Source: an uncultured Planctomycetia bacterium (GTDB lineage: Bacteria; Omnitrophota; Gorgyraeia; 1-14-0-20-64-10). Taken from it: a stretch of DNA of 64,000 nucleotides. The notes under the pieces are model-generated. The model did not search any database. It was not told the origin of the DNA and saw only the letters and a list, made by a program, of their open reading frames with translations. The position numbers and the translations under genes were made by a program. Below are positions 13,169-26,533 of this stretch, in pieces (the stretch's first letter is position 1; each line of letters opens with the position of its first letter). The stretch lies in assembly GCA_964373715.1 (NCBI GenBank), contig CAYJVR010000001.1, forward strand, positions 21,164-85,163, read 5' to 3'.

Positions 13169-13984
13169 ATGCGACGGAAGCTTGAACGTTACACTGTCCT
13201 TGTATTTCTAGTTGCCTCTCCTTTTTGGCTGCCCTCCATCCCCAAGGAGACAGGGGGTTCCCTGAGGTTAAAACTCGCCAGCTTGTTTCAGCCCGCGATC
13301 ATGGCAGTCCAATCCTTTCAGGTAGGTTTCCGGAGGTTAGGGGGAGGGTTGCTCCAGTGGCCTTTTCTCCAGGAAGAAAACCGGTTTCTCCACAAGCAGG
13401 TTGAAACCCTCTGGGCCCATGAAAAGGTTCACGGGGAGTTGTTTGAAGAGAATGCCCGCCTGCGGGCCCTGTTGGATCTGAAGGTTAAAAGCGCGTGGCG
13501 GCTTACTTCCGCCGAAGTGGCGTCGCGCGAGTTCAGCGTTTGGTCGCGGACGCTGTTGATTGATAAAGGAAGCCGTCATGGGATTCAGTCCGGCATGGCG
13601 GTGATTGTCCCTGCCGGACTTATCGGCCGGGTGTCGGAGGTGGGGCCTTCTTTGAGCAGGGTTACCCTTTTGAACGATCCGCATTTCCGGGTGGCGGCCA
13701 CAGCCTCCTCTTCGAGGGTCATGGGCTTGATGGTGGGGACCGCTTCGGGAGAGACGTTGATTACCTATGTGCCGCTTGACGCTCATCTCAAAGCGGGAGA
13801 ATTGGTCTCCTCTTCCGGAGGAACCAGTTTTTGTCCGGGGGATGTTCCCATCGGCATGATATCGGCCGTCATGGGAGATCCTTCCCACCTGTTCCAGTCT
13901 GCCCGGATCCGTCCGCTGGCCGATTTAAGCGCTGTTGAAGAGGTCTTGGTCGTGACATGGCCTTCCACAGAGTCTGCCTCTTAA
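13169..13984 (+). CDS. mreC: Rod-shape-determining protein MreC
   Basis: N-terminal TM/coiled coil, then the MreC beta-barrel region (GLIGRVSEVGPSLSRVTLLNDP...). Lies between mreB and mreD. Confidence 0.8.
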   Translation: MRRKLERYTVLVFLVASPFWLPSIPKETGGSLRLKLASLFQPAIMAVQSFQVGFRRLGGGLLQWPFLQEENRFLHKQVETLWAHEKVHGELFEENARLRALLDLKVKSAWRLTSAEVASREFSVWSRTLLIDKGSRHGIQSGMAVIVPAGLIGRVSEVGPSLSRVTLLNDPHFRVAATASSSRVMGLMVGTASGETLITYVPLDAHLKAGELVSSSGGTSFCPGDVPIGMISAVMGDPSHLFQSARIRPLADLSAVEEVLVVTWPSTESAS

Positions 13985-14472
13985 TCGTTTTTCTCTGGAT
14001 CATCGAGTTTCTTTTCCTGCCGATTATCCCTCTGGCGAAGATCCTGGTGGATCCTCTTTTTATATTTCTTGTGTTCCGCGGTCTTCAGGCTTCTTCCGGG
14101 CGGTTCCTGTGGGCCGAAGGGGTTTTCCTTGGCTTGTTGAAGGATTTGGCTACAGGAGGACTTTTCGGCGGGTTTGCCTGCTCGTTTGGATTTATCGGCT
14201 GGCTGCTCGGCCAAAGCCAGCATCTTGTTGAGAAGGAAGATCCGTTGATCCAGGCGGTTTGGGCAGGGTTTCTGACCGCTTTCCAATGGGTTGTTTATGG
14301 ATTATTAGTTGTTCTGGCGGAAAAAACGGTTGGTTGGGGCCGGGGATGGGGGCTTCTCCTTCCTTTGGCGGTCGCGGCCAACTGCGGGTCTGCTTTCTGG
14401 GTTTTTCCTTATTTTCGCCGGTTTCTCAAAGTCCGTGACAAGCGGAGGATTGACCTCTTCGTGGCTCAGTGA
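13957..14472 (+). CDS. mreD: Rod-shape-determining protein MreD
   Basis: 171 aa polytopic hydrophobic protein directly after mreC and before pbp2. Start uncertain. Confidence 0.6.
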   Translation: MAFHRVCLLIVFLWIIEFLFLPIIPLAKILVDPLFIFLVFRGLQASSGRFLWAEGVFLGLLKDLATGGLFGGFACSFGFIGWLLGQSQHLVEKEDPLIQAVWAGFLTAFQWVVYGLLVVLAEKTVGWGRGWGLLLPLAVAANCGSAFWVFPYFRRFLKVRDKRRIDLFVAQ

Positions 14473-14509
14473 ACGGACGAATAAGGGTTTTCCAAACCGG
14501 GATTTTCTC

Positions 14510-16234
14510 ATGAGGATTCTGATCCTCCAGCGGATCATTCTGGCTACCGTGGTTCTTTTATGGGGGGCCCTTTTTTCTTTCCAGGTCATCCACGGGGTGG
14601 AGTATCGGGGGAAGTCGGAGAAGAATAGGACGCGGCTCATCCCTCTTCCCGCCTCACGCGGGGCGATCCTGGACAGGCGCGGCGTTCCCCTCGCGGAGGA
14701 TCGTATGAGCTTTGAGCTGGCCGCGTTTCCCCAGGAGATCAAAGATCCCGGCGCTCTCTGGCAGAAACTCCAGCCGTTGGTGGGACAATCTCCCGAGGCG
14801 ATGGCTAAAGCGTACCGGAAAGGTTTTCAGGGCCCCTTTTCACCTGTGCCGATCGTCAAGAATCTTTCCAGCGAGGCGGCATTCCGGATTGAGGAGGATA
14901 AAACAGATCTTCCCGGCGTTATGGTCCGCCCTGTGCCGAAGAGAGATTATCCTCTCGGCGCCGCCCAGGGATCGGCGCTCGGATACATCGGCATTATCTC
15001 CCAGGCGGAGTTGACCCGCCTGAAGTCTTACGGTTATTCTTACCGCGATTACGTCGGCAAGGACGGCCTGGAGCAGATGTACGATAATGTCCTCCGCGGA
15101 AAACCGGGAGGCTTGCTTGTGGAGGTCAACGCCCGGGGGAAAATGGTCCGGCAGCTTGGGTTCCGAAAACCGGAAACGGGCCGCCAGATCACGGTCTCGC
15201 TCGACGGCCGGCTTCAGGAATTCTGCTATAAACTTCTTGATGAGAGACCGGGGGCGATCGTTGTGATGGACAACGCGACCGGCGAAATATTGGCCCTCGT
15301 CAGTTCCCCATCATTCGACCCCAATGCTTTTCTCGATTCGAACCGTTCGGAGGAGGTGCGTCGTTATCTCCACTCTCCGAAGAACCCGATGTTCAACCGG
15401 ACGATCTGGTCGGTTGTTCCGCCCGCTTCGACATTTAAGATAGCTGTCGCGGCTCATGCGCTCCAGCTGGGCAAGATTTCGGGGGACACCACGTTTGAAT
15501 GCAAAGGATTTTTCCAGCTTGGCGCGAGGGCTTTTAAATGCTGGTGGGCGGAAGGGCACGGTCGGCAGACGGTGACCGGCGCCCTGGAGCACTCCTGCGA
15601 CGTTTTTTTCTACAATACGGGGCGGCGGATCCGGGCGGATGGGGTTGCTCAGGCGGCGCGCCTCTTCGGGCTCGGTACTCGTACCGGGATCGATTTGCGG
15701 GGAGAGAACAACGGGTTCGTCCCGGATCCGGCCTGGATGAGAGAGATTGTCCATCAGCCTTGGCAGGAGGGAGACACCCTTTCTTTTTGTATTGGACAGG
15801 GGGCTTTGACGGCAACCCCGCTGCAGGTCATGATGCTTTTTGCCATCCTGGCCAATAACGGTTACTCCCCGCATCCCCACCTCCTCCTTAAAGTGGAAGG
15901 GGAGCCGGAGATGAGGGTGCCTGCTAAAGGCAGGCAGGTGGCGCTTCGGCCCGAGGTGATCGCGCGCGTGAAAGAAGGGATGGAAAAGGTGGTGAGTTCC
16001 GACACAGGGACCGGCCGCCTCGCCCAGTTGCCCGGCATTCCGGTTGCCGGCAAGACCGGAACGGCGCAGGTGACGAAAGGGCTTTCTCACGCCTGGTTTG
16101 GCGGATATGTGCCGGCGGATCACCCTAAGGTCAGTTTCATTGTTTTTCTTGATCATGGGGGGAGGGGCGGCGCGGAGGCCGCTTTCCTGGCGAGGGACAT
16201 GCTGGTATGTCTCCACGAGCTGGGGTATATTTGA
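14510..16234 (+). CDS. mrdA: Penicillin-binding protein 2 (elongasome transpeptidase)
   Basis: PBP dimerisation plus transpeptidase domains: STFK active-site serine motif, SxN and KTGT motifs. Start at ATG 14510, after the mreD stop. Confidence 0.85.
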   Translation: MRILILQRIILATVVLLWGALFSFQVIHGVEYRGKSEKNRTRLIPLPASRGAILDRRGVPLAEDRMSFELAAFPQEIKDPGALWQKLQPLVGQSPEAMAKAYRKGFQGPFSPVPIVKNLSSEAAFRIEEDKTDLPGVMVRPVPKRDYPLGAAQGSALGYIGIISQAELTRLKSYGYSYRDYVGKDGLEQMYDNVLRGKPGGLLVEVNARGKMVRQLGFRKPETGRQITVSLDGRLQEFCYKLLDERPGAIVVMDNATGEILALVSSPSFDPNAFLDSNRSEEVRRYLHSPKNPMFNRTIWSVVPPASTFKIAVAAHALQLGKISGDTTFECKGFFQLGARAFKCWWAEGHGRQTVTGALEHSCDVFFYNTGRRIRADGVAQAARLFGLGTRTGIDLRGENNGFVPDPAWMREIVHQPWQEGDTLSFCIGQGALTATPLQVMMLFAILANNGYSPHPHLLLKVEGEPEMRVPAKGRQVALRPEVIARVKEGMEKVVSSDTGTGRLAQLPGIPVAGKTGTAQVTKGLSHAWFGGYVPADHPKVSFIVFLDHGGRGGAEAAFLARDMLVCLHELGYI

Positions 16235-16238
16235 CCCC

Positions 16239-17342
16239 ATGCTTAACAGGCGTCAGTTTCGGGGGATTGACAAACCTCTCTTTTTTGCGGCCCTCGGTCT
16301 CTTGGCACTCGGGCTTCTGACTCTGTACAGCGCCTCTTTTCAGAAGGCCCAGGATTTAGGCGTCAGCTACATCAACCGCCAGCTCATGTGGGCGGCGATC
16401 GGGGCGGTCTTGGCGATCCTGCTGGTGAACCTCGATTATCACCGGTGGCTCGAGTGGTCCTACGCGTTTTACGCGCTGAATCTTCTTCTACTGGCCATCG
16501 TCTTGGTTGCCGGGGTCACGCGGGGCGGCGCTCAGCGCTGGCTGAGTTTCGGCGGATTGACGATTCAGCCTTCTGAGTTCGCCAAGATCACCACCATATT
16601 GGCTCTTACCCGTTATCTCGGTTCTCACCGGGAGATGACCAGTTTCAGCTGGAAGGCCATTTTCTTCGTGGGCGCTTTGGTCGTCCCTCCGATAGGCTTC
16701 ATTTTAAAAGAGCCGAATCTCGGGACTGCCTTCGTCTTCATTCCGGTGACTTTGGCCATGCTGCTTGTTTGGGGAATCCGTCTCAAGGTTTTGGGGATTA
16801 TTCTCGGAACGGGTGTCGCCGTTTCCCCTATTCTCTGGCACGGGTTGAAGGAGTACCAGCGTTCCCGGCTGATGGTCTTCATGAACCCGAACTTGGATCC
16901 TTTAGGCGCCGGCTATACGGTAATCCAGTCTAAAATTGCCATTGGTTCCGGCGGCCTGTTGGGGAAGGGGTGGTTTTCCGGAACGCAGAACCAGCTCAAC
17001 TTCCTGCCCGAGCGCCACACCGATTTCATCTTCTCGATCGTTGGGGAAGAATGGGGTTTTTTGGGGACGACCGTTTGTTTAGCCCTCTTCGTGGTGATCT
17101 TCTCCCGGGGCATCTTGATCGCGACCCAAACCCGCGACCCGTTCGGCCGTTTGCTGATCATCGGACTGGTGACGATGCTGTGGTTCCACGTTATGGTCAA
17201 CATCGGCATGACGATGGGACTGATGCCGGTCGTCGGTCTGCCTCTGCCGTTCTTAAGCTATGGCGGTTCCTGGACGCTGACCTGCCTTGTGGCCGTCGGA
17301 ATTATCCTCTCGGTCGGTGTCCGCAGGTCCCTTTACTCCTAA
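16239..17342 (+). CDS. rodA: SEDS-family peptidoglycan polymerase RodA
   Basis: FtsW/RodA 10-TM topology with conserved SEDS-family blocks. Start at ATG 16239, 5 nt after the pbp2 stop. Confidence 0.85.
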   Translation: MLNRRQFRGIDKPLFFAALGLLALGLLTLYSASFQKAQDLGVSYINRQLMWAAIGAVLAILLVNLDYHRWLEWSYAFYALNLLLLAIVLVAGVTRGGAQRWLSFGGLTIQPSEFAKITTILALTRYLGSHREMTSFSWKAIFFVGALVVPPIGFILKEPNLGTAFVFIPVTLAMLLVWGIRLKVLGIILGTGVAVSPILWHGLKEYQRSRLMVFMNPNLDPLGAGYTVIQSKIAIGSGGLLGKGWFSGTQNQLNFLPERHTDFIFSIVGEEWGFLGTTVCLALFVVIFSRGILIATQTRDPFGRLLIIGLVTMLWFHVMVNIGMTMGLMPVVGLPLPFLSYGGSWTLTCLVAVGIILSVGVRRSLYS

Positions 17343-17549: not shown

Positions 17550-17729
17550 ATGGATCGATTGATGACAATAGAAGAGGTCGCGGCCTATATGCAGATAAGC
17601 CGGTTCACTGTTTACCGGCTGGCCAAGGATCGTTCCATCCCGGCGACTAAAATTGGTCGGCAGTGGCGTTTCCATAAAGATGAAATTGACCGATGGATGA
17701 GGGAAAGATGCCAAAGAGATCCCCAATAG
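17550..17729 (+). CDS. Small stand-alone helix-turn-helix protein (excisionase/MerR-like HTH_17 family)
   Basis: 59 aa, MDRLMTIEEVAAYMQISRFTVYRLAKDRSIPATKIGRQWRFHKDEIDRWM. Below the ORF-track size cutoff. Overlaps the next gene by 37 nt in another frame. Confidence 0.55.
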   Translation: MDRLMTIEEVAAYMQISRFTVYRLAKDRSIPATKIGRQWRFHKDEIDRWMRERCQRDPQ

Positions 17730-19168
17730 TAAAGTCGGATTTTTCTCTCGTGTCCCGGGGGCTCCGAGAGAAAATGATCGTCGCTTTTTGCCTGATGTCG
17801 GTTGTGCCCCTTTTGGTTCTCATTTACATCGTGACGACTTACGCCACCCCGCATCTAAAGACCTGGTGGGATATCGGGATACTGATAGGCATCTCGGCTG
17901 GCATCTCTGTTTTGGGTTTTGTCGTTACCCGTTCGTTTGTTATCCCGGTTGTGAGATTAGCCGAAGAGGCGAAAACGATTGCCGAAGGTAAGGTAGATCA
18001 GCAGGTGGAAGTGACGACCGAAGATGAGATCGGTGCCCTGGGAAAATCGCTTAATGAAATCACGCATAGGGTCAGGGAGAACATGGCCCAGCTGCAGGTC
18101 TACGGCGAGGAGTCGCGCCATCTGCATTTAGAGATCAACCGCCGGATAGTGACGTTTTCAAACCTTCTGCAGGTCAGTAATCTGATTACCCAATCGGCGA
18201 AGGTGGAGGAGATCGTCGCATTTATTCTGGAGAAGCTCAGCCATTTGGAAGAGGTGGAACTCAACCTCTTTCTCGAGCCTTCCAGCAGCCCAGATCTCTT
18301 TGTCGTCCGGATGGCCATGGGCGCGGACCGATCGAAAGCGGATAAGGCCGCGAACGTCTCGGTTTCTCTTCCTTGGCTCCACCGTTGCGCCTCGGAGAGG
18401 AAGATGCTCGTTCTTGACGCCAATACGGGAATCCAGGAGGAAAAGGATCTTTTATGCCGGTATTTCGGCATGCTGAACGCTGTTTGCCAGCCGCTGGTCG
18501 GCATGGGCAAAGTGATCGGGGTCCTGGTATGCGGAAACTCAAAAGAGAACTTTACTTTTGACGATGACTCGCAGGATATCCTGAGGGTTTTTGCGAAACA
18601 GATGGCGATTGCCATTGAGAACGATCTGCTCGTCAATCGGGCTAAGAAGTTGGAGATCCTCGATGATCTGACCGGACTTTACAATGCCCGTTACTCGAAA
18701 AACCGGCTGGAAGAGGAGATCCATCGGTCCATGAGGTTTCACCACCCCTGCTCCCTCATGATCCTGAATATCGATGGTTTCAAGAAGATCCAGGAGCGTC
18801 ATGGCCAGCAGTCGGCGAATAAGATTCTCGTGCGGGCGGCGGACCTGATACGCGGGGAGCTCAGCGATGTGGATCGGGTAGGGCGCATCGGTCCAGATGA
18901 ATTCTGCCTCATTCTTCCGGAGAGAAACAAGCGGGAGGCTATTCAGCTTGCCGAAAGGATCCGCAAGAAGATCGAGACCAGCGTTTTTGTGAAAGAGGGC
19001 CAGAAAATTCCAGAGCCTTTGACGATCTCGGGAGGGATCAGTGAAAATCCTTTGGATGGTTCAACGAGCGATGAGTTATTCAATAAAGCAATGGAGTTAA
19101 TGAAACTGGCCAAAGTGCAGGGGAAGAACAGGATTAACCCCGATCTTCCAGGCCACACCAAGGTGTGA
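17693..19168 (+). CDS. Membrane sensor with 2 TM, HAMP, GAF-like and GGDEF domains. The GGDEF motif is degenerate (GPDEF), so this is probably a c-di-GMP effector or inactive cyclase.
   Basis: TM helices at aa 28-50 and 60-82, a HAMP segment, and a GGDEF fold (DLTGLYNARY...LNIDGFKKIQERHG...RIGPDEFCLILPE). The signature reads G-P-D-E-F at nt 18890-18904. The RxxD I-site position reads SDVD. Confidence 0.8.
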   Translation: MDEGKMPKRSPIVKSDFSLVSRGLREKMIVAFCLMSVVPLLVLIYIVTTYATPHLKTWWDIGILIGISAGISVLGFVVTRSFVIPVVRLAEEAKTIAEGKVDQQVEVTTEDEIGALGKSLNEITHRVRENMAQLQVYGEESRHLHLEINRRIVTFSNLLQVSNLITQSAKVEEIVAFILEKLSHLEEVELNLFLEPSSSPDLFVVRMAMGADRSKADKAANVSVSLPWLHRCASERKMLVLDANTGIQEEKDLLCRYFGMLNAVCQPLVGMGKVIGVLVCGNSKENFTFDDDSQDILRVFAKQMAIAIENDLLVNRAKKLEILDDLTGLYNARYSKNRLEEEIHRSMRFHHPCSLMILNIDGFKKIQERHGQQSANKILVRAADLIRGELSDVDRVGRIGPDEFCLILPERNKREAIQLAERIRKKIETSVFVKEGQKIPEPLTISGGISENPLDGSTSDELFNKAMELMKLAKVQGKNRINPDLPGHTKV

Positions 19169-19181
19169 GGGCTACTAAATT

Positions 19182-20291
19182 ATGGGCGCGACAATCATTA
19201 CTCTGCAAGGAGAGACAGCGTTAAAGCCCCAGATGGAGCAGATGCTGAAGCTGATGGTCGAACGGAGAGCCTCAGACCTCCACCTGACAGTGAATTCCCA
19301 CCCGATGCTGCGTGTGGACGAAGGGTTGATCCCCTTAACCGAGTTTCCGGTTTTTTCCGGCGAAGACACGAGAGTTTTTGCCTACAGCCTGTTATTACCC
19401 GAGCAGAAAAAAATGTTCGAAACCAATAGAGAGCTCGACATCTCGTTTGGCGTCAGCGGCATGGGCCGCTTTCGCGTTAACGTTTTTCTCCAGAGGGGAT
19501 CGGTGAGCGTGGCTCTGCGGCTTTTACCGGCAGAAATACGAACATTTGAGCAATGCGGCCTGCCCGGAAAAATCATGGAAGAACTGTGCCGGAGAAAGAG
19601 GGGACTGATCCTGATTACCGGTTCCACTGGGAGCGGAAAATCCACCACGATGGCTTCGATGGTCGAGTGGATCAACAGCAACCGCAGTTGCCACATTATT
19701 ACGGTGGAGGACCCGATCGAGTACGTTTATAAGAATAAAAAAGCGATTGTCGACCAGCGGGAGGTAGGGATGGACACCCATTCTTTCGGCAACGCTTTAA
19801 AGCATATGCTTCGGGAAGACCCCAATGTGATCCTGATCGGAGAAATGCGCGACCTCGAGACGATTGAGTCGGCTCTCAACATCGCGGAAACAGGGCACCT
19901 TGTGCTGGCGACCCTGCACACGAACGACGCTGTCCAGACGGTGAACCGCATCGTGGATGTTTTTCCCTCTCACCAGCAGCAGCAGGTGCGCGTCCAGCTT
20001 TCCTTCGTTTTGCTGGCGGTTATGACCCAGCAGCTGATTCCAAAAGCGGGTGGAATGGGCCGCGTTCTCGGGATAGAAATCCTGATGGCCAATCCGGCTG
20101 TCCGCTCGCTGATCCGTGAAGGGAAAGCGCACCAGATTTATTCGGTGATCCAGACCAGCCATCGGGAAGGGATGAGGACGATGAACCACTCGTTGGCCGA
20201 GATGCATGTCCGAGGTGACGTCTCCTATGAAGAGGCCTTGGGGCGCTCATCCGATCCGGAGGAATTCCTGCGTTTGATTCATCACAAATAA
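19182..20291 (+). CDS. pilT: Type IV pilus retraction ATPase PilT
   Basis: 369 aa. Walker A GSTGSGKST, Asp box, His box (ATLHTNDA), and the PilT-family AIRNLIREGK-like motif. Confidence 0.9.
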   Translation: MGATIITLQGETALKPQMEQMLKLMVERRASDLHLTVNSHPMLRVDEGLIPLTEFPVFSGEDTRVFAYSLLLPEQKKMFETNRELDISFGVSGMGRFRVNVFLQRGSVSVALRLLPAEIRTFEQCGLPGKIMEELCRRKRGLILITGSTGSGKSTTMASMVEWINSNRSCHIITVEDPIEYVYKNKKAIVDQREVGMDTHSFGNALKHMLREDPNVILIGEMRDLETIESALNIAETGHLVLATLHTNDAVQTVNRIVDVFPSHQQQQVRVQLSFVLLAVMTQQLIPKAGGMGRVLGIEILMANPAVRSLIREGKAHQIYSVIQTSHREGMRTMNHSLAEMHVRGDVSYEEALGRSSDPEEFLRLIHHK

Positions 20292-20328: not shown

Positions 20329-20763
20329 ATGATAGCAAAAAAATTGGGCGAACTCCTGGTGGAGCGGAAAGTGATCTCCCCGGAGCAATTAAGCGAGGCA
20401 TTTAAAATTCAGCAGGAGAAGGGCGGCTTGCTGGGGCAGATCCTCGTTGAGCTTGGCTATTCCACGGAGGAGGCTGTCGCCCAAGCGCTTACCGCCCAAT
20501 ACGGTTTCCCGTACCTTCCGCTGAAACATTACGCCATTGACAATGAACTCTTAATCCTTATCCCGGAGAACGTCGCGAAGCAGTATTGTCTGATCCCCGT
20601 CGATAGGATTGGCAACACTCTCACGGTGGCGATGGCGGATCCGTTGAACGCGAAGGCGGTTGAAGACATCGAGATGCTCAGCCGCTGTTCCGTGCAGGTG
20701 TTTGTGACTACGATGAGCGATGTCATTGAGGCGATCGGGCGTTGTTATGGAGCCAAGCCATGA
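20329..20763 (+). CDS. Stand-alone MshEN / GspE-N-terminal (T2SSE_N) domain protein, a putative c-di-GMP receptor
   Basis: 144 aa. KKLGELLVERKVISPEQLSEAFKIQQ and LLGQILVELGYSTEEAVAQALTAQ resemble the two 24-residue MshEN c-di-GMP-binding motifs (RLGxxLVxxGxIxxxxLxxALxxQ). Ends in an ATGA overlap with pilB. Confidence 0.7.
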   Translation: MIAKKLGELLVERKVISPEQLSEAFKIQQEKGGLLGQILVELGYSTEEAVAQALTAQYGFPYLPLKHYAIDNELLILIPENVAKQYCLIPVDRIGNTLTVAMADPLNAKAVEDIEMLSRCSVQVFVTTMSDVIEAIGRCYGAKP

Positions 20764-22496
20764 CCAAACCGGACCCCTTGCAGAAAGCTTCCATGGGGAT
20801 CAGCGAGCGGCTTGCTGGAGTTCTTTTGAGCGAAAAACTTCTCAAGAAGGAGGATATCGAGAAGGCGTTGGCCCTTCAGCGGGAAAAGGGAGGATCTTTA
20901 AGCCAGGTTCTGATCGAGATGGGATTGGTGGAGGCCAAGGCCCTCGCGGCGGTTTTAAGCCGCACACTTCATATACCGATTATAAGTCTCTCAAAAATGG
21001 AATTGGATCCCGACATGGCGAAGCTGATTTCCCGGAAGTTGGCCATCCATTACCAAATTATTCCGGTTTCCCTCATGGGGAAACAGCTCACCGTGGTGAT
21101 GGCCGATCCGATGAATATCCTCGCGCTGGACCATCTCAGCCAGGCGACCGGAATGATCCTGACCCCTTTGATTACCACGCAGGAGGAGGTTCAAGACGCG
21201 CTCAACAGGTTATACGGAGGGGTCATCGCCGATACTCTGCAGGAACTTCAAGGAGGGCCTGTTTCTATCGAGGTTCTTGCCGAGAGGAAAGAGTCCAGCG
21301 GGTCGGAACAGGTCGAGGATCTGATCCGGTTGACAAAGGAAGGTCCTGTTGTTCGGATCACGAACGCGATCCTGACGGAAGGGGTGACTTTGAAGGCAAG
21401 CGATATATTGATCGAACCCTTTGAAAGGCGCCTTCGGATCCGTTACCGGGTCGATGGGGTCTTCCGGGAAGGGCAGTCGCTGCCTCCGGCGATGCATGCT
21501 GGTGTCGTATCGAGGATAAAAGTGATGTCGAACCTGAACATCGCCGAGCACCGTTTGCCGCAGGATGGGCGGATTAAATTCTCAGTGGCGAGTCGGGGTG
21601 TCGATTTCCGCGTTTCTGTCATCCCCACCTATTATGGTGAAAAAGTCTGTCTTCGGATCCTCGATAAGAGCCAAGTAAGGCTCGATGTGGACAAGCTGGG
21701 TTTCGATCCTGAGCCTTTGAGGGTTCTAAAGAAGGCGATGATGCACCCGCACGGGATGGTTTTGATCACCGGGCCGACCGGTTCCGGGAAAACAACGACT
21801 CTTTACGGACTGCTCAGCTTGGTGGATCGGCCGGAAAAGAATCTCGTGACTGTTGAGGATCCGGTGGAATACGACCTGCCGGGGATCAACCAGGTAGCCG
21901 TGCGTTCCGAAATCGGGCTGACCTTCGCTACGGTTTTGCGTTCCATCCTCCGGCAGGACCCGAATGTCATCATGATCGGCGAGATACGGGATGAAGAGAC
22001 GGCAGATATCGCGGTCAAGGCGGCTTTAACCGGGCACCTCGTACTTTCCACACTGCACACGAACGATGCGATCGGTGCGGTGGCCCGGTTGGCCAACATG
22101 GGGATCGAGCCTTATTTGATCGCCTCCTGCGTTCTTTTAGTCGGGGCGCAGAGGCTGCCTCGCCGCGTCTGTCCGCGCTGCAAGCAGCCGGTCCGGCATT
22201 CGAGAGAGCTTCTTGAGCGGATGGCGCTGCCTCTCGATGGCAGTTACATGAAGGGGAAGGGATGCGTCGAATGCCGCAGTACCGGGTTGGCCGGCCGTAT
22301 CGGCCTGCTTGAGGCTGTTCCGATCACCTCGGACCTGCGAAGATTGGTTGACCAGGGGGCTTCTTCCGTTAAGTTGCAGGGGGCTGCTCGGGCTGCCGGC
22401 TTTTATTCGCTCAGAGATTATGCGGTGGCAAAGGCAGTGGCAGGTTTGATCCCTCTGGAAGAGGTGGCCCGCACAACGGTTGGATTTCAAGAATAA
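20760..22496 (+). CDS. pilB: Type IV pilus assembly (extension) ATPase PilB/GspE, copy 1
   Basis: N-terminal GspE_N domain, Walker A GPTGSGKTT, Asp and His boxes, and a tetracysteine Zn motif (CPRC...CVEC). Confidence 0.9.
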   Translation: MTKPDPLQKASMGISERLAGVLLSEKLLKKEDIEKALALQREKGGSLSQVLIEMGLVEAKALAAVLSRTLHIPIISLSKMELDPDMAKLISRKLAIHYQIIPVSLMGKQLTVVMADPMNILALDHLSQATGMILTPLITTQEEVQDALNRLYGGVIADTLQELQGGPVSIEVLAERKESSGSEQVEDLIRLTKEGPVVRITNAILTEGVTLKASDILIEPFERRLRIRYRVDGVFREGQSLPPAMHAGVVSRIKVMSNLNIAEHRLPQDGRIKFSVASRGVDFRVSVIPTYYGEKVCLRILDKSQVRLDVDKLGFDPEPLRVLKKAMMHPHGMVLITGPTGSGKTTTLYGLLSLVDRPEKNLVTVEDPVEYDLPGINQVAVRSEIGLTFATVLRSILRQDPNVIMIGEIRDEETADIAVKAALTGHLVLSTLHTNDAIGAVARLANMGIEPYLIASCVLLVGAQRLPRRVCPRCKQPVRHSRELLERMALPLDGSYMKGKGCVECRSTGLAGRIGLLEAVPITSDLRRLVDQGASSVKLQGAARAAGFYSLRDYAVAKAVAGLIPLEEVARTTVGFQE

Positions 22497-22497
22497 G

Positions 22498-24225
22498 ATG
22501 GCAAACTCATTAAGACAGAAAGTCGTAGATCTCCTTGTCGAGACGTGCGGAGTGGACCGGGAGAAGCTGGAAACCGCGCTGAAATCGCCCAAGGCGAGGG
22601 AGAAGACCCTCAGCCAACTTCTGGTGGAGGAGGGTTTGGTCAGCCAGCAGGACCTTCTCGCCACGCTCGCCGAAGGACTTCACCTGCCGCCGATCAATTT
22701 GGCCCGCTATCAGATTGATCCAGCCCTCTCTGAAGTAATCCCTGAAAGGATGGCCCGCCAATACAGGGTTGTACCCGTTTCCCGGATCGGCAACCGATTG
22801 TCGGTGGCGATGGCCGATCCGATGAATATTTTGGCCTTGGATGATCTGGCGATGACGACCTTGCTCGACATCAGCCCTGTCATCGCGGCGGAAAGGGATG
22901 TGGATCAGGCTATCCAAAAGCTGTATCATCCCGGCTTCTCTCCGGAGGCTTTGAACACCGGTTCCCAGGCTGAATTTATGGGCGGTTCGGAGGAGATGGA
23001 GGAGGAATCCGATTCAGAAGAGGATGTCGTGGATCTGACCGCCTTCGGCATGGCCGGCCAAAAAGCTCCGATCGTTAAGGTGGTGGATATGATGATCATT
23101 GAAGCCTTGAAGGCGCGCGCCAGCGATATCCATGTCGAACCCTATGAGAAAGATATCAGAATCCGGTATCGGGTGGACGGTTCCTTGATAGAGGTTTTTC
23201 GCCTGCCGAAGAGGCACCAGAGCGCTCTCGTCACGCGCTTAAAGATCCTTTCCAAGCTGGACATCACGGAGAACCGACTCCCGCAGGATGGGCGTTTTAA
23301 AGTCCGTTCGGAGAACAGGGAGGTGGACTTCCGCGTTTCCGTGCTTCCGATCTCCTTTGGGAATAAGGTTGTCATGCGCGTGCTGGACAAAGGCAATCTC
23401 TCGGTGGGATTGGAAAAGCTGGGACTGCTGCCGGAGTCCCGCGCCGTTTTTGAGAAGGCGGTTGCCCGGCCCTACGGCATGCTTCTGATCACGGGTCCGA
23501 CGGGAAGCGGGAAATCCACGACCCTCTATTCCGTGTTAGCCCAGATGAATCAGCCGGTCCGAAACATTATGACGATCGAGGACCCGGTGGAGTACCAGGT
23601 GGAGGGTATCACGCAGGTCCAGGTCAACCCGGAGATCGGGCTGACTTTTCCCTCCACGCTGAGGTCATTTCTCCGGCAGGCTCCTGATGTGGTTTTTGTG
23701 GGTGAGATAAGGGACGGCGAAACGGCCGATATCGCGATCAAGGCCTCTCTCACCGGGCAGGTTGTCCTCTCGACTCTTCACACGAATGACGCCTCCAGCT
23801 CCATCACCCGGCTTATAGATATGGGGGTGGATCCCTTCCTGCTGGCTTCCAGCCTTATTTTTGTGGCCGCCCAGCGTTTGTGCCGCCAGGTCTGCCCTCG
23901 GTGCAAAATCCCCGAACAGGTGCCGCCGGAGCGCCTTAAAGCGGCGGGCCTGAAGCTGGAGAAGAACCAGCTCCTTTACAAAGGGCAGGGCTGCAGCTAT
24001 TGCCGTCAAACAGGATTTAGGGGACGCTTCGCTATTTTAGAGGCGATGCTGGTGGACGACGCGATCCGGGAGATGATTATCGCTCGAAAGTCATCCGATG
24101 AGATTAAAACATATGCCGTGGAACGCGGGATGAGAACGCTTCGGCAGGAAGGGCTGGTTCATCTGCTGGATGGCCGGACCAGCTTTGATGAGGTGCAGAG
24201 GGTAACCAGCGAAGACGAGGAGTAA
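22498..24225 (+). CDS. Second PilB/GspE-family ATPase paralog (copy 2)
   Basis: Same architecture: GspE_N, Walker A GPTGSGKST, CPRC...CSYC tetracysteine. About 45-50% identical to copy 1 by eye. An alternative ATG at 22480 is possible. Confidence 0.9.
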   Translation: MANSLRQKVVDLLVETCGVDREKLETALKSPKAREKTLSQLLVEEGLVSQQDLLATLAEGLHLPPINLARYQIDPALSEVIPERMARQYRVVPVSRIGNRLSVAMADPMNILALDDLAMTTLLDISPVIAAERDVDQAIQKLYHPGFSPEALNTGSQAEFMGGSEEMEEESDSEEDVVDLTAFGMAGQKAPIVKVVDMMIIEALKARASDIHVEPYEKDIRIRYRVDGSLIEVFRLPKRHQSALVTRLKILSKLDITENRLPQDGRFKVRSENREVDFRVSVLPISFGNKVVMRVLDKGNLSVGLEKLGLLPESRAVFEKAVARPYGMLLITGPTGSGKSTTLYSVLAQMNQPVRNIMTIEDPVEYQVEGITQVQVNPEIGLTFPSTLRSFLRQAPDVVFVGEIRDGETADIAIKASLTGQVVLSTLHTNDASSSITRLIDMGVDPFLLASSLIFVAAQRLCRQVCPRCKIPEQVPPERLKAAGLKLEKNQLLYKGQGCSYCRQTGFRGRFAILEAMLVDDAIREMIIARKSSDEIKTYAVERGMRTLRQEGLVHLLDGRTSFDEVQRVTSEDEE

Positions 24226-24229
24226 AGCG

Positions 24230-25432
24230 ATGCCTGTTTTTGCTTATGTTGCTAAGATGGACGATGGCCGGACGGTGAAAGGCTTTCTGGAGGCCCACTC
24301 CAAGTCAGCGATGCTCGAAACGCTCCACAGGCAGGGGCTCATCGTTCTGGAGGTTAATATCAAGAAAGTCGCCGGTTCGCCCGCGTTCGGCGGGAGGGTA
24401 AAAGCGGATGACCTGGCTATTTTCTCCCGGCAGCTGGCCACCCTCGTGGATGCCGGTATTCCGATCGTCGGCGGTTTAGAGGCGGTCTCGGACCAACTCG
24501 AAAATCCGCAGCTCCGGCAGGTGGTGATCAAGATCTATGAGGCGGTAGAGGGGGGCATGAACCTGACGGCTGCCATTGCCAAGCAGAACGCCGTTTTCTC
24601 CCCTTTGTTCGTCAACATGGTCAGGGCAGGGGAAGCCAGCGGCCATTTGGCCGATGTTTTGGACCGGCTGGCGACTTATCTTGAAAAGAGCGCCGCCCTT
24701 CAGAGGAAAGTCAAATCGGCCTGTATTTATCCGGCGATCGTTATCTCGATGGCTCTGATCATCACCACGCTGCTGATGATCAAAGTGATCCCCGTTTTTA
24801 AACAGATGTTCGAGCAGTTGGATGTGGATCTTCCTCTCCCGACACAGATTCTCATAGCCACGAGCGACCTGATGGCGGCCTTTTTCCTTCCCGGAATCGG
24901 TTTGATCATCGCGGCGGTTTTTCTTTTCCGCCGCCTGATTAAGACGCCCAATGGGCGCCTTTGGTTCCACCGCTTTTTGCTGAAAGCGGTCATTGTCGGG
25001 CCGATCGTTCGGAAGGTCGCGATTGCCAAATTTGCCCGCACCCTTTCCACGCTTGTCAGAAGCGGTGTTCCGATCCTTTTGGCGCTGGAGATTGTTTCCG
25101 AAACGTCGGGGAACCGCGTGGTGGAGCTGGCTGTTCTTCAGGTGAGGGCCTCGATCAAGGAGGGGGAAAATATCGCGGCACCGCTGGCGGCCAGCAAGGT
25201 TTTCCCCCCGCTTGTTGTCCGGATGATTGCCGTGGGGGAGCAGACCGGCCGGCTGGATGACATGCTCACCAAGATTGCCGAGTTTTATGAAGATCAGGCA
25301 GATACGGCAATAGCGGGACTGACTAGCGCCATCGAGCCGTTGATCATTGCCGTTTTAGGTGTTGTGGTGGGAGGCATCGTGATTTCGATCTTCCTGCCGA
25401 TCTTCAAACTGACGCAGGTATTTTCAGGCTAG
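24230..25432 (+). CDS. pilC: Type IV pilus inner-membrane platform protein PilC/GspF
   Basis: 400 aa with two repeated GspF domains and 3 TM segments. Lies directly after the ATPases. Confidence 0.9.
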   Translation: MPVFAYVAKMDDGRTVKGFLEAHSKSAMLETLHRQGLIVLEVNIKKVAGSPAFGGRVKADDLAIFSRQLATLVDAGIPIVGGLEAVSDQLENPQLRQVVIKIYEAVEGGMNLTAAIAKQNAVFSPLFVNMVRAGEASGHLADVLDRLATYLEKSAALQRKVKSACIYPAIVISMALIITTLLMIKVIPVFKQMFEQLDVDLPLPTQILIATSDLMAAFFLPGIGLIIAAVFLFRRLIKTPNGRLWFHRFLLKAVIVGPIVRKVAIAKFARTLSTLVRSGVPILLALEIVSETSGNRVVELAVLQVRASIKEGENIAAPLAASKVFPPLVVRMIAVGEQTGRLDDMLTKIAEFYEDQADTAIAGLTSAIEPLIIAVLGVVVGGIVISIFLPIFKLTQVFSG

Positions 25433-25576: not shown

Positions 25577-26017
25577 ATGCATACTCTAAATCGTAAGAAC
25601 TCCAAGGGTTTTACGCTCGTGGAGATCATGATCGTAGTCGCTATTATCGCGCTCATCGCAGCCATCGCGGTTCCTAACCTTTTGAGAGCGCGCCATAACG
25701 CCAATGAGACCGCGGCCATCGGAAATGTGAGGACGCTGCTGTCATCCTTGGAGTCGTTCCGGGCGGCGCAGAGCCCTCCAGCTTATCCGGATGCTTTGGA
25801 TGAGTTGAGCGCTGCGGATCCCCAGTATGTGCCGGATGAGCTGACGGATGGTGATCAGCAAGGATATGATTTTATTTTCACCCAGGTCAGCGATAACGAG
25901 TATACCCTGATTGCTACTCCAACAGTGGATGGCGTGACGGGAACGCGGCATTTCTTCGTGGACCAGACGGGTGTTATCCGGGTTGGTGATGACGACACGG
26001 GTACGCCGATCGAATAA
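25577..26017 (+). CDS. pilA: Type IV major pilin (PilA-like prepilin)
   Basis: 146 aa. Leader MHTLNRKNSKG followed by FTLVEIMIVVAIIALIAAIAVPNLL (class III signal: G-1, F+1, E+5). Strong RBS. Confidence 0.85.
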   Translation: MHTLNRKNSKGFTLVEIMIVVAIIALIAAIAVPNLLRARHNANETAAIGNVRTLLSSLESFRAAQSPPAYPDALDELSAADPQYVPDELTDGDQQGYDFIFTQVSDNEYTLIATPTVDGVTGTRHFFVDQTGVIRVGDDDTGTPIE

Positions 26018-26028
26018 ACAGCGGAGAG

Positions 26029-26101
26029 GCGCTAGCTTAACGCTAGCATGCCCAAACATGCAGGGGCGGCGACCCAAAGGTTGCCGCCCCTGCATGTTTG
26101 G
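26029..26101 (+). terminator. Compound stem-loop after the major pilin gene: a 6-bp gctagc hairpin plus a perfect 19-bp-stem hairpin. No T-tract, so it is more likely an attenuator or mRNA-stabilising element.
   Basis: gctagc(26031-36)-ttaac-gctagc(26042-47). Then ccaaacatgcaggggcggc (26052-26070) pairs with gccgcccctgcatgtttgg (26083-26101) around a 12-nt loop. Confidence 0.55.
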
Positions 26102-26119
26102 AGTGGGAAAGGGCGATCC

Positions 26120-26533
26120 ATGATTTTTCCCGGGGTGGATAAAAGAAGGCGCAGTGCGTCAGGCTTCACGCTGATCGAAGTATTGGTCGGCATGGCGGTT
26201 TTTGTCACGGCGCTTGTCGTTTTGTTGGGGATATACACCGGTATCGCTGCTCTCAGGGAATCGGGCCGGAATACGACCCAAGCGGTGGCGGATGCGAGGG
26301 CCGTTCTGGAAGCGATGAGGGACAGGTCGTCGACCGGTTTGTCTAACGTAACTGCGCAGGATTGGACCCAGTGGGCCGAAGATAACGGGTTGACCTCTCT
26401 TGACAGTGAGGTGATCACTGTCGATTACGTGGATACGTCAGCAGATCCGCTGGAAATCACGGTTCAGGTGGATTGGGTGGAGCGGGTAAGGGAGCGCTCG
26501 ATGACCATCAGCACTTTGATGACGCAGAGGTGA
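26120..26533 (+). CDS. Minor pilin / pseudopilin (GspI/PilV-like)
   Basis: 137 aa. MIFPGVDKRRRSASG followed by FTLIEVLVGMAVFV prepilin signal. The ORF-track start at 26048 lies inside the hairpin and was rejected. Confidence 0.7.
   Translation: MIFPGVDKRRRSASGFTLIEVLVGMAVFVTALVVLLGIYTGIAALRESGRNTTQAVADARAVLEAMRDRSSTGLSNVTAQDWTQWAEDNGLTSLDSEVITVDYVDTSADPLEITVQVDWVERVRERSMTISTLMTQR

Follow-up and report, generated by a model that had tools for sequence, protein, structure and literature searches.

A stand-alone MshEN protein encoded beside pilB in Omnitrophota: a candidate detached c-di-GMP sensor module of the type IVa pilus extension motor

MshEN is among the few widespread receptor domains for cyclic di-GMP (c-di-GMP), and in the published examples that were compared here it forms part of an ATPase chain, in which it is flexible and poorly resolved. 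A 64,000-nt stretch of DNA from an uncultured bacterium placed by GTDB in the Omnitrophota (the window; GenBank assembly GCA_964373715.1, contig CAYJVR010000001.1) encodes a protein of 144 amino acids (aa) that consists of such a domain alone, and its open reading frame (ORF; 20329-20763, + strand) is followed directly by the genes of two ATPases with MshEN domains of their own. This protein is referred to below as free MshEN and the two downstream ATPases as PilB1 and PilB2. The locus raises the question of what a detached receptor domain does in front of motor proteins that already contain one. The explanation towards which we lean, on balance, is that free MshEN is a trans-acting c-di-GMP sensor module, separated from the chain of a PilF-like type IVa extension motor in Omnitrophota. 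The gene and its parts are as follows.

20329..20763, + strand: free MshEN gene, a stand-alone complete MshEN domain, 144 aa
20341..20412, + strand: c-di-GMP half-motif I, aa 5-28, KLGELLVERKVISPEQLSEAFKIQ, aligned to MshE residues 9-32
20413..20427, + strand: five-residue spacer, aa 29-33, QEKGG, of the length found in MshE (Wang 2016)
20428..20499, + strand: c-di-GMP half-motif II, aa 34-57, LLGQILVELGYSTEEAVAQALTAQ, aligned to MshE residues 38-61
20500..20754, + strand: MshEN_C / T2SSE_N1 alpha/beta subdomain, aa 58-142, from PF05157 and the strands and helices of an AlphaFold2 model

The ORF begins with ATG, with no earlier in-frame start after the preceding stop codon, and gene calls for identical contigs in three metagenomes give it the same boundaries. 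A Shine-Dalgarno-like G-rich run lies 4-9 nt 5' of the ATG and the gap from the upstream pilT gene is 37 nt. At the other end, the stop codon (TGA, 20761-20763) overlaps the ATG of PilB1 (20760) as ATGA, as an earlier note on this DNA had stated, and GGAG is present 7 nt 5' of that ATG. Comparison with the closest orthologue (90% identical) gave a ratio of nonsynonymous to synonymous substitution rates (dN/dS) of 0.05, indicating strong purifying selection. The window protein begins with MIAKK, while most orthologues are 149-157 aa long and have a short basic N-terminal extension (e.g. MPRRLIAK).

Free MshEN matched every position (1-53/53) of NF053729, a curated 53-position model of the c-di-GMP motif in NCBIfam, over aa 5-57 (65.0 bits, cut-off 38, E=3.7e-18), a match that, as far as sequence goes, is far beyond chance. 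The hidden Markov model search that had been proposed in the earlier note, with the T2SSE_N/MshEN model, gave a clear domain assignment (Pfam PF05157, 73.6 bits, cut-off 23.1) but covered aa 58-142 only; as this alignment lies outside the c-di-GMP site it is uninformative on the motif, and NF053729 was used in its place. A phmmer search of the PDB aligned free MshEN over its full length to the GSPII domains of PilF, to the N-termini of Geobacter and Myxococcus PilB and to MshE. No T2SSE ATPase domain was found in the protein with Pfam, and the PilB model TIGR02538 gave 79.3 bits against a cut-off of 675.65, aligning over profile positions 1-138/564 only. The JGI label 'type IV pilus assembly protein PilB' on free MshEN orthologues is thus an over-annotation. 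There was also no Pfam match to PilZ, and the fold is a helical bundle with an alpha/beta subdomain and not a beta-barrel, so that any likeness to PilZ-type adaptors is functional only. A match to DUF4388 (19.1 bits, cut-off 25) was dropped as sub-threshold.

An AlphaFold2 model, computed from a 45-sequence family alignment, had a mean predicted local distance difference test score (pLDDT) of 92.3 and a predicted template modelling score of 0.80. It consists of an N-terminal four-helix bundle (helices 6-12, 18-31, 35-41 and 47-58) followed by the alpha/beta subdomain. The top PDB match by Foldseek was 5HTL, MshE with bound c-di-GMP (template modelling score, TM, 0.82/0.85; root-mean-square deviation 2.2 Å; 138 columns). 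Several c-di-GMP-bound structures of PilF GSPII-B (TM 0.71-0.79) and Xanthomonas PilB(N)-PilZ complexes (TM 0.78) were matched as well, while GspE N1-GspL complexes matched the C-terminal subdomain only.

The ligand mode of the domain is known from Vibrio cholerae MshE. The motif, RLGxx(L/V/I)(L/V/I)xxG(L/V/I)(L/V/I)xxxxLxxxLxxQ, occurs in two copies with a five-residue spacer; main-chain amides of Gly-3 and of the residue after it recognise the guanines, which Leu clusters hold in place, and Gln-24 contacts ribose and phosphate (Wang 2016, PMC5013675). In the same study binding became undetectable in G11L, 72-fold weaker in G40I, more than 10-fold weaker after single Leu-to-Ala replacements and 9- to 12-fold weaker in Q32A/Q61A. 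The two segments quoted in the earlier note proved to be the two 24-residue motifs with the expected spacer. The alignment with MshE residues 9-61 is ungapped and pairs K5 with R9, L6 with L10, G7 with G11, K14 with G18 and Q28 with Q32 in motif I, and L34 with R38, L35 with L39, G36 with G40, G43 with G47 and Q57 with Q61 in motif II. Contacts were scored at positions 2, 3, 17, 21 and 24 of both half-motifs (hydrophobic at 2, 17 and 21, Gly at 3, Gln at 24; 10 in all), and free MshEN of the window has 10/10. Beyond the motifs, G32 and G33 of the spacer are invariant in the close family, and A-D104-P105 is conserved, with D104, which aligns with MshE D108, and P105 invariant in the family.

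The first residues of the half-motifs have a counterpart in a binder of very high affinity. GSPII-B of Thermus thermophilus PilF, with motif starts K167 and L196, binds with a dissociation constant (Kd) of 6 nM, and the K167L variant binds tighter still; the consensus was accordingly widened to (R/K/L)LG, with a hydrophobic first residue proposed to predict very high affinity (Neissner et al. 2024, PMC11731258). K5/L34 of free MshEN is the same pair, and both first positions are acceptable under the widened consensus.

Conservation of the contacts was compared between free MshEN and the N-domains of the two ATPases, whose genes are the following.

20760..22496, + strand: PilB1, PilB/GspE-type extension ATPase, 578 aa (Pfam MshEN and T2SSE)
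22480..24225, + strand: PilB2, PilB/GspE-type ATPase, 581 aa (Pfam MshEN and T2SSE)

The 53-residue region was aligned for free MshEN from 81 genomes, PilB1 from 78 and PilB2 from 61. Free MshEN has 10/10 contacts in 80/81 genomes, and both Gly and both Gln are present in 81/81 (G7, Q28, G36 and Q57 each 81/81; L34 80/81; G43 78/81). The PilB1 N-domain retains a mean of 7.23/10 contacts, with both Gly in 2/78 and the full set of two Gly and two Gln in 0/78, and the PilB2 N-domain a mean of 6.69/10, with 0/61 for either combination. The residue preceding motif I is Lys in free MshEN in 81/81 (K4, equivalent to MshE K8), usually Glu or Asp in PilB1 and usually Asp or Glu in PilB2. In the window, PilB1 (motifs RLAGVLL... 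/ SLSQVLI...SRT) has 7/10 contacts and PilB2 (KVVDLLV... / TLSQLLV...AEG) 6/10, and they score 36.3 and 30.3 bits with NF053729, below its cut-off, while every free MshEN orthologue tested scores 60-65 bits. This score separates the domains in the window but not in divergent loci, and position-specific counts were used instead. As the contact positions drift in PilB1 and PilB2 domains of the same fold, their invariance in free MshEN is not explained by folding alone. This pattern argues for selection on ligand binding in free MshEN, and loss of c-di-GMP binding is predicted for the N-domains of PilB1 and PilB2.

A conserved setting accompanies the conserved site. The other genes of the cluster that bear on it are listed here.

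17550..17729, + strand: HTH_17 DNA-binding protein, 59 aa (Pfam PF12728, 69.2 bits, cut-off 27)
17708..19168, + strand: HAMP-GAF-GGDEF protein with a degenerate active site (Pfam; start according to gene calls on identical contigs)
19182..20291, + strand: PilT-family retraction ATPase, 369 aa (TIGR01420, 474.3 bits, cut-off 319.1)
24230..25432, + strand: PilC platform protein, 400 aa (Pfam T2SSF, two repeats, 214.5 bits)
25577..26017, + strand: type IV pilin-like protein with N-terminal methylation motif (Pfam N_methyl, 37.7 bits)

A word-indexed search with free MshEN returned 4214 matches, of which the best 120 were all 144-160 aa long and 71-100% identical; the named ones among these 120 were Candidatus Omnitrophota metagenome-assembled genomes. 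When one genome per GTDB species was scanned with the close-family alignment, at least 581 species genomes carried a relative of free MshEN. Locus statistics were taken from the best 80 of these, essentially all Omnitrophota. Free MshEN is a separate ORF in 80/80 loci, and the next gene is of PilB1 type in 80/80, followed by PilB2 and PilC. The junction between free MshEN and PilB1 is an overlap or a gap of at most 30 nt in 62/80. The exact ATGA overlap occurs in only 4/80, and it was discarded as a conserved feature in favour of tight spacing in general. Upstream genes were counted in the 64 loci with at least 3 kb of upstream sequence. The HAMP-GAF-GGDEF gene is 5' of free MshEN in 62/64, and PilT lies between the two in 48/64 and is absent in 16/64. 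In the window the ORF, Pfam and NF053729 matches and TIGR01420 agree with the earlier description of a stand-alone MshEN between pilT and two pilB paralogues. Relative to the window proteins, free MshEN and PilT have the same median identity (62%), ahead of PilC (54%), PilB2 (52%), PilB1 (50%) and the GGDEF protein (37%). Promoter-like and terminator-like sites within the cluster showed no excess over the shuffle expectation.

Relatives outside the core family indicate how the separate gene relates to fused ATPases. Among the top 150 cluster representatives (50% identity) of an exhaustive search, 38 had a single domain and a length of 130-190 aa, and many of the rest carried several MshEN domains; single-domain MshEN ORFs are common in databases and uncharacterised. 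One homologue, P0132 (765 aa, locus L090), joins a free-MshEN-like domain through a low-complexity linker to a complete PilB, whose ATPase part is 49% identical to PilB1 and 43% to PilB2. It has the (MshEN)2-T2SSE architecture of PilF-type ATPases, and a PilB2-type gene and PilC come next in the locus. In its distal MshEN domain Gly-3 and Gln-24 are present in each half, which is not so in its proximal domain (RVI..., SLLN...). By sequence and gene order L090 is the same operon core, with free MshEN and PilB1 joined in one polypeptide. In more distant relatives (40-52% identity) free MshEN is again followed by a PilB1-type ATPase, with differing inputs upstream; the order is REC, free MshEN, PilB1, PilB2, PilC in L091 (42% identity) and PilT, free MshEN, PilB-type gene in L088. 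In L092 (110-1037) a PilB1-type gene is preceded by tandem free MshEN genes with 39% and 61% identity to the window protein; in sequence terms this corresponds to a PilF-like (MshEN)3-ATPase split in two places. The homologues thus form a continuum from fully fused (MshEN)2-4-T2SSE ATPases, such as PilF, to singly and doubly split forms, with the Omnitrophota gene as the split form.

Two further homologues, P0151 (454 aa) and P0157 (723 aa), have a query-like MshEN domain (52-54% identical) fused to unrelated C-terminal regions. The region of P0151 resembles, by eye, DnaA-type AAA+ proteins (GKTHLL...), and that of P0157 is long and of unassigned function. Such fusions are a hint that c-di-GMP may also feed into other machinery.

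From these observations we infer binding of c-di-GMP, docking on PilB1 and the direction of an effect on pilus extension. Free MshEN would be made from the same operon just before PilB1, across an overlapping or close junction. Its four-helix bundle would bind one c-di-GMP through both half-motifs, with the backbone amides of G7/E8 and G36/Q37, the Leu clusters and Q28/Q57 as contacts, and the protein would then associate with the PilB1 hexamer, and possibly with PilB2. The level of c-di-GMP would in this way be coupled to pilus extension through free MshEN, because the MshEN domains of the ATPases themselves have lost key contacts. The suggestion of a diffusible c-di-GMP receptor that docks onto the motor agrees with the invariant contacts, the adjacency to PilB1 and the fusion in L090; the binding and docking steps in it are predictions. 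As the sensor is separate and the ATPase copies are apparently ligand-blind, sensing and docking would be naturally separated and individually testable, and free MshEN with PilB would provide a natural split system for the control of pilus motors by MshEN.

Several observations weigh against a detached c-di-GMP sensor. Free MshEN misses the strict consensus of Wang at K5, K14 and F25 (positions 1, 10 and 21 of motif I) and at L34, S45 and V50 (positions 1, 12 and 17 of motif II). K14 takes the place of the Gly in the turn between helices 1 and 2, although the AlphaFold2 model forms the turn regardless, and S45, mostly Ala across the family, occupies a hydrophobic position. Across the phylum position 5 varies (Q48 K11 T11 R8 H2 L1 among 81), so that the first residue of motif I is Q, T or H in 61/81, beyond even the (R/K/L) consensus, and position 14 is mostly K (40/81) or G (34/81). 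On the side of the ATPases, the loss of binding is a prediction from residues: the Ser, Ala or Thr found at position 3 is a milder replacement than the Ile and Leu tested in MshE, and the PilF mutants Q190E and Q218E, present among the Foldseek PDB matches, were still crystallised with c-di-GMP. PilB N-domains of the divergent loci L024, L046 and L064 reach 40-59 bits with NF053729, above the cut-off of 38; those that pass are without Gly at motif position 3 and/or the terminal Gln. The fused form was examined in a single homologue (P0132), and gene order and fusion imply association but not functional direction.

The source of the ligand is a further point of this kind. The signature of the HAMP-GAF-GGDEF protein is GPDEF in place of GG(D/E)EF, and the RxxD I-site is absent, with (T/S)E(V/I)D at that place. 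In an alignment of 69 orthologues the signature was hypervariable (SGDTF, ADDEF, SGDEF, GPDEF, GADEF, ERDRF...), and the canonical GGDEF was present in 2/69. In PleD-type cyclases the Asn and Asp of the region FKxxNDxxGHxxGD bind guanine. This region reads FKKIQERHGQQSAN in the window protein when aligned with active cyclases, so the guanine-binding Asn and Asp are replaced. The protein is probably not an active diguanylate cyclase, to judge from these residues, and may act as a sensor or scaffold; the gene was rejected as evidence for local synthesis of c-di-GMP on account of the degenerate signature, the missing I-site and the changed guanine-binding residues. ORFs of 120 aa or more in the 64-kb window were screened for motifs, with the hits checked against Pfam, and none was found to have an intact GGDEF, EAL or HD-GYP signature. 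Candidates for c-di-GMP turnover at 41.6-44.0 kb and 52.0 kb were rejected, being a ProB-like protein (AA_kinase-PUA), an aldehyde dehydrogenase and PdxA. Elsewhere in the genomes of Omnitrophota, GGDEF domains as well as genes for PilZ are reported to occur (bioRxiv 10.1101/2023.11.21.568195).

Part of this evidence would fit a ligand-independent structural or adaptor subunit, comparable to GSPII-A of PilF, that bridges PilB1 and PilB2 to the platform (PilM/PilC) or to the HAMP-GAF-GGDEF protein. We regard such a role as possible but rather unlikely. The whole protein is conserved and not the motif alone (mean column identity 76% in the close family), which suggests protein-protein surfaces, and the MshEN/N1 fold is a known docking surface in PilB(N)-PilZ and, for the C-terminal subdomain only, in GspE N1-GspL. 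Positions 1 and 10 of motif I are off consensus in many orthologues, the adjacent GGDEF protein is probably inactive, and small deviations can abolish binding, as in GSPII-A (PMC12002112). However, Gly, Gln and Leu contacts that are complete in 80/81 genomes and yet drift in PilB1 and PilB2 are difficult to account for if no ligand is bound, the K/L pair is shared with the 6 nM binder (PMC11731258), and the NF053729 scores of 60-65 bits were found in all orthologues tested.

The detached sensor could also be imagined as one part of a larger device, which we offer as speculation and think unlikely. Free MshEN would be a mobile and shared c-di-GMP 'key' and, together with the catalytically dead, membrane-anchored HAMP-GAF-GGDEF protein, would form a three-part motor switch in which the ligand state chooses whether PilB1 or PilB2, or extension or retraction by PilT, engages the platform, and so gates pilus attachment to prey or host in these ultra-small, host-dependent bacteria. 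If true, this switch would be a convergent counterpart of FimX-PilZ-PilB of Xanthomonas, built from unrelated parts.

The earlier note had offered a decoy as its alternative: free MshEN would compete with the N-domains of PilB1 and PilB2 for a site on the platform and limit extension, perhaps together with PilT. Its C-terminal subdomain does resemble those of PilB1 and PilB2, the gene is directly 3' of pilT in 48/64 loci, and the MshEN_C/N1 subdomain of GspE docks on GspL, in the structures that were matched by the C-terminal subdomain. We nonetheless consider a brake of this kind improbable. PilB1 is adjacent in 80/80 loci, whereas PilT is absent in 16/64; covalent fusion to a PilB1-type ATPase in L090 is ill-suited to a competitor of that ATPase; and with 27-33% identity between free MshEN and the PilB N-domains a shared docking partner is not implied. 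A ligand-free competitor would, moreover, need no invariant ligand site.

Recognition of another nucleotide by the same fold, such as 3',3'-cGAMP or another guanine-containing dinucleotide, is more improbable still. The variation (Q/K/T/R) at the guanine-stacking first position of motif I, the deviations at position 10 and the lack of an intact-site cyclase near the gene would be compatible with it, but the Gly-x amides present in both half-sites read guanine O6/N7 and exclude adenine (Wang 2016, PMC5013675), and conservation does not differ between the two halves, which is what a symmetric di-guanine ligand would lead one to expect. That the gene is a non-functional remnant, either a 5' piece of pilB that arose by duplication or an error of gene calling, might be read from its homology to the first ~145 residues of the adjoining pilB genes and its overlap with the pilB1 start, but is effectively refuted by the conservation data, including an ORF intact in 80/80 loci, the low dN/dS, a confidently predicted fold, the Shine-Dalgarno-like G-run and conservation equal to that of PilT and above that of PilB1, PilB2 and PilC.

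A detached c-di-GMP sensor, the explanation preferred here, can be set beside several known systems, of which the MshEN domain, its ligand mode, the mixed domains of PilF and the PilZ/FimX trans adaptors of different fold are already established. MshE of V. cholerae (5HTL, PMC5013675) has the same two-subdomain fold, half-motif layout and Gly/Leu/Gln contacts and the same association with a pilus extension ATPase. The MshE domain is, however, the N-terminus of the ATPase, whereas free MshEN is a separate protein with ~30% identity to it, in which Arg9, Arg38 and the turn residue Gly18 are replaced by Lys, Leu and Lys. PilF of T. thermophilus (8PDK, 6F8L; PMC11731258, PMC12002112) shares the Lys/Leu motif starts in GSPII-B and mixes binding-competent domains (B, C) with an incompetent one (A), as Omnitrophota combine one intact domain with degenerate ones. 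In PilF all GSPII domains are on one chain, whereas in Omnitrophota the competent domain is a separate gene in 80/80 loci and there are two ATPase paralogues; in addition, the N-terminal-most domain of PilF is a non-binder, whereas the detached, distal module of Omnitrophota is the intact one. By analogy, free MshEN may work like a PilF GSPII module. It is not a member of the (MshEN)n-T2SSE architecture, as a stop codon parts it from PilB1 in every one of the 80 loci and covalent fusion is thus lacking; the fused (MshEN)2-4-T2SSE ATPases are listed in Supplementary Table 4 of Wang 2016 (PMC5013675).

Regulation of PilB by a small trans adaptor is known from PilZ-FimX-PilB of Xanthomonas citri and FimX-PilB of Pseudomonas (7LKM/7LKO; PMC8389850, PMC5595344), in which the adaptor and a degenerate GGDEF protein act on the N-domain of PilB. 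The logic of outsourced c-di-GMP sensing would be similar in Omnitrophota, for which the interaction is a prediction. The Xanthomonas adaptor, a protein of PilZ fold, does not itself bind c-di-GMP, and it is the EAL domain of FimX that reads the ligand, whereas the candidate adaptor of Omnitrophota is the MshEN domain itself; the Omnitrophota GGDEF protein has HAMP and GAF domains and, unlike FimX, no EAL. MshEN domains outside a T2SSE ATPase chain are found in P. aeruginosa PA3740 (MshEN-xT2SSE_N1), E. coli NfrB and the cyanobacterial (MshEN_N)2 protein cce_1044 (Wang 2016, Supplementary Table 4), but none of these is described as the pilus-operon partner of PilB ATPases with degenerate MshEN domains. 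Systems with both PilB and a TfpB-type protein (PMC11656802) have two PilB-family ATPases per pilus, as do those with PilB1 and PilB2; however, no free MshEN partner is described for them and the Omnitrophota paralogues are below the TfpB cut-off. The arrangement of free MshEN with PilB appears neither in Wang's architecture table (PMC5013675) nor in the 2024 review of PilB cofactors (PMC11656802), and no description of free MshEN as a cofactor of PilB was found in the full-text literature, subscription journals being outside this coverage. Type IVa pili are near-universal in Omnitrophota according to a genomic study of the phylum that makes no mention of PilB or c-di-GMP, and those of these ultra-small uncultured bacteria are thought to attach to hosts or prey (PMC10066038).

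For annotation, free MshEN is a gene conserved throughout this phylum that is at present unannotated or mislabelled "PilB". The locus also contains two traps, namely a neighbouring "diguanylate cyclase" that is probably inactive and the acceptance by NF053729 of PilB N-domains without the essential glycines; as the model accepts domains lacking key residues, automated annotation will over-call c-di-GMP binding.

The cluster begins with the HTH_17 gene, which runs into the start of the GGDEF gene and occupies the same place in all four divergent loci inspected (L004-L007); this suggests that its product is a dedicated transcriptional regulator of the cluster. At 59 aa the ORF is below a 60-aa threshold and is easily missed. 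The PilT-family ATPase has the T2SSE domain and no MshEN domain by Pfam. In the loci without pilT (L031, L034, L037, L039, L042, L048, L052, L061, L063, L069, L077, L078 and others) the degenerate GGDEF gene adjoins free MshEN. The tandem of PilB1 and PilB2 is conserved across the phylum, with both below the equivalog cut-offs of TIGR02538 (PilB1 604 bits, cut-off 675.65) and TfpB (404 and 441 bits for PilB1 and PilB2 of the window, cut-off 850). In L042, L052 and L069 the best PilB2 match is ~2 kb farther downstream than usual. The gene at 25577..26017 is the first of several pseudopilin genes, a second N_methyl protein being encoded at 26048-26533.

Bins deposited as TPA_asm under the title 'uncultured Planctomycetia/Planctomycetales bacterium' (L010, L012, L017, L019-L023 and others) have the Omnitrophota-type operon at 60-80% identity, as does one titled 'Deltaproteobacteria' (L048), and these names are probably placeholders or wrong taxonomy. 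Directly 5' of the pilus cluster are mreD, PBP2 and rodA (window 13957-17342, + strand), an arrangement that recurs in L005 and L006, and mreB and mreC are found farther upstream in L001.

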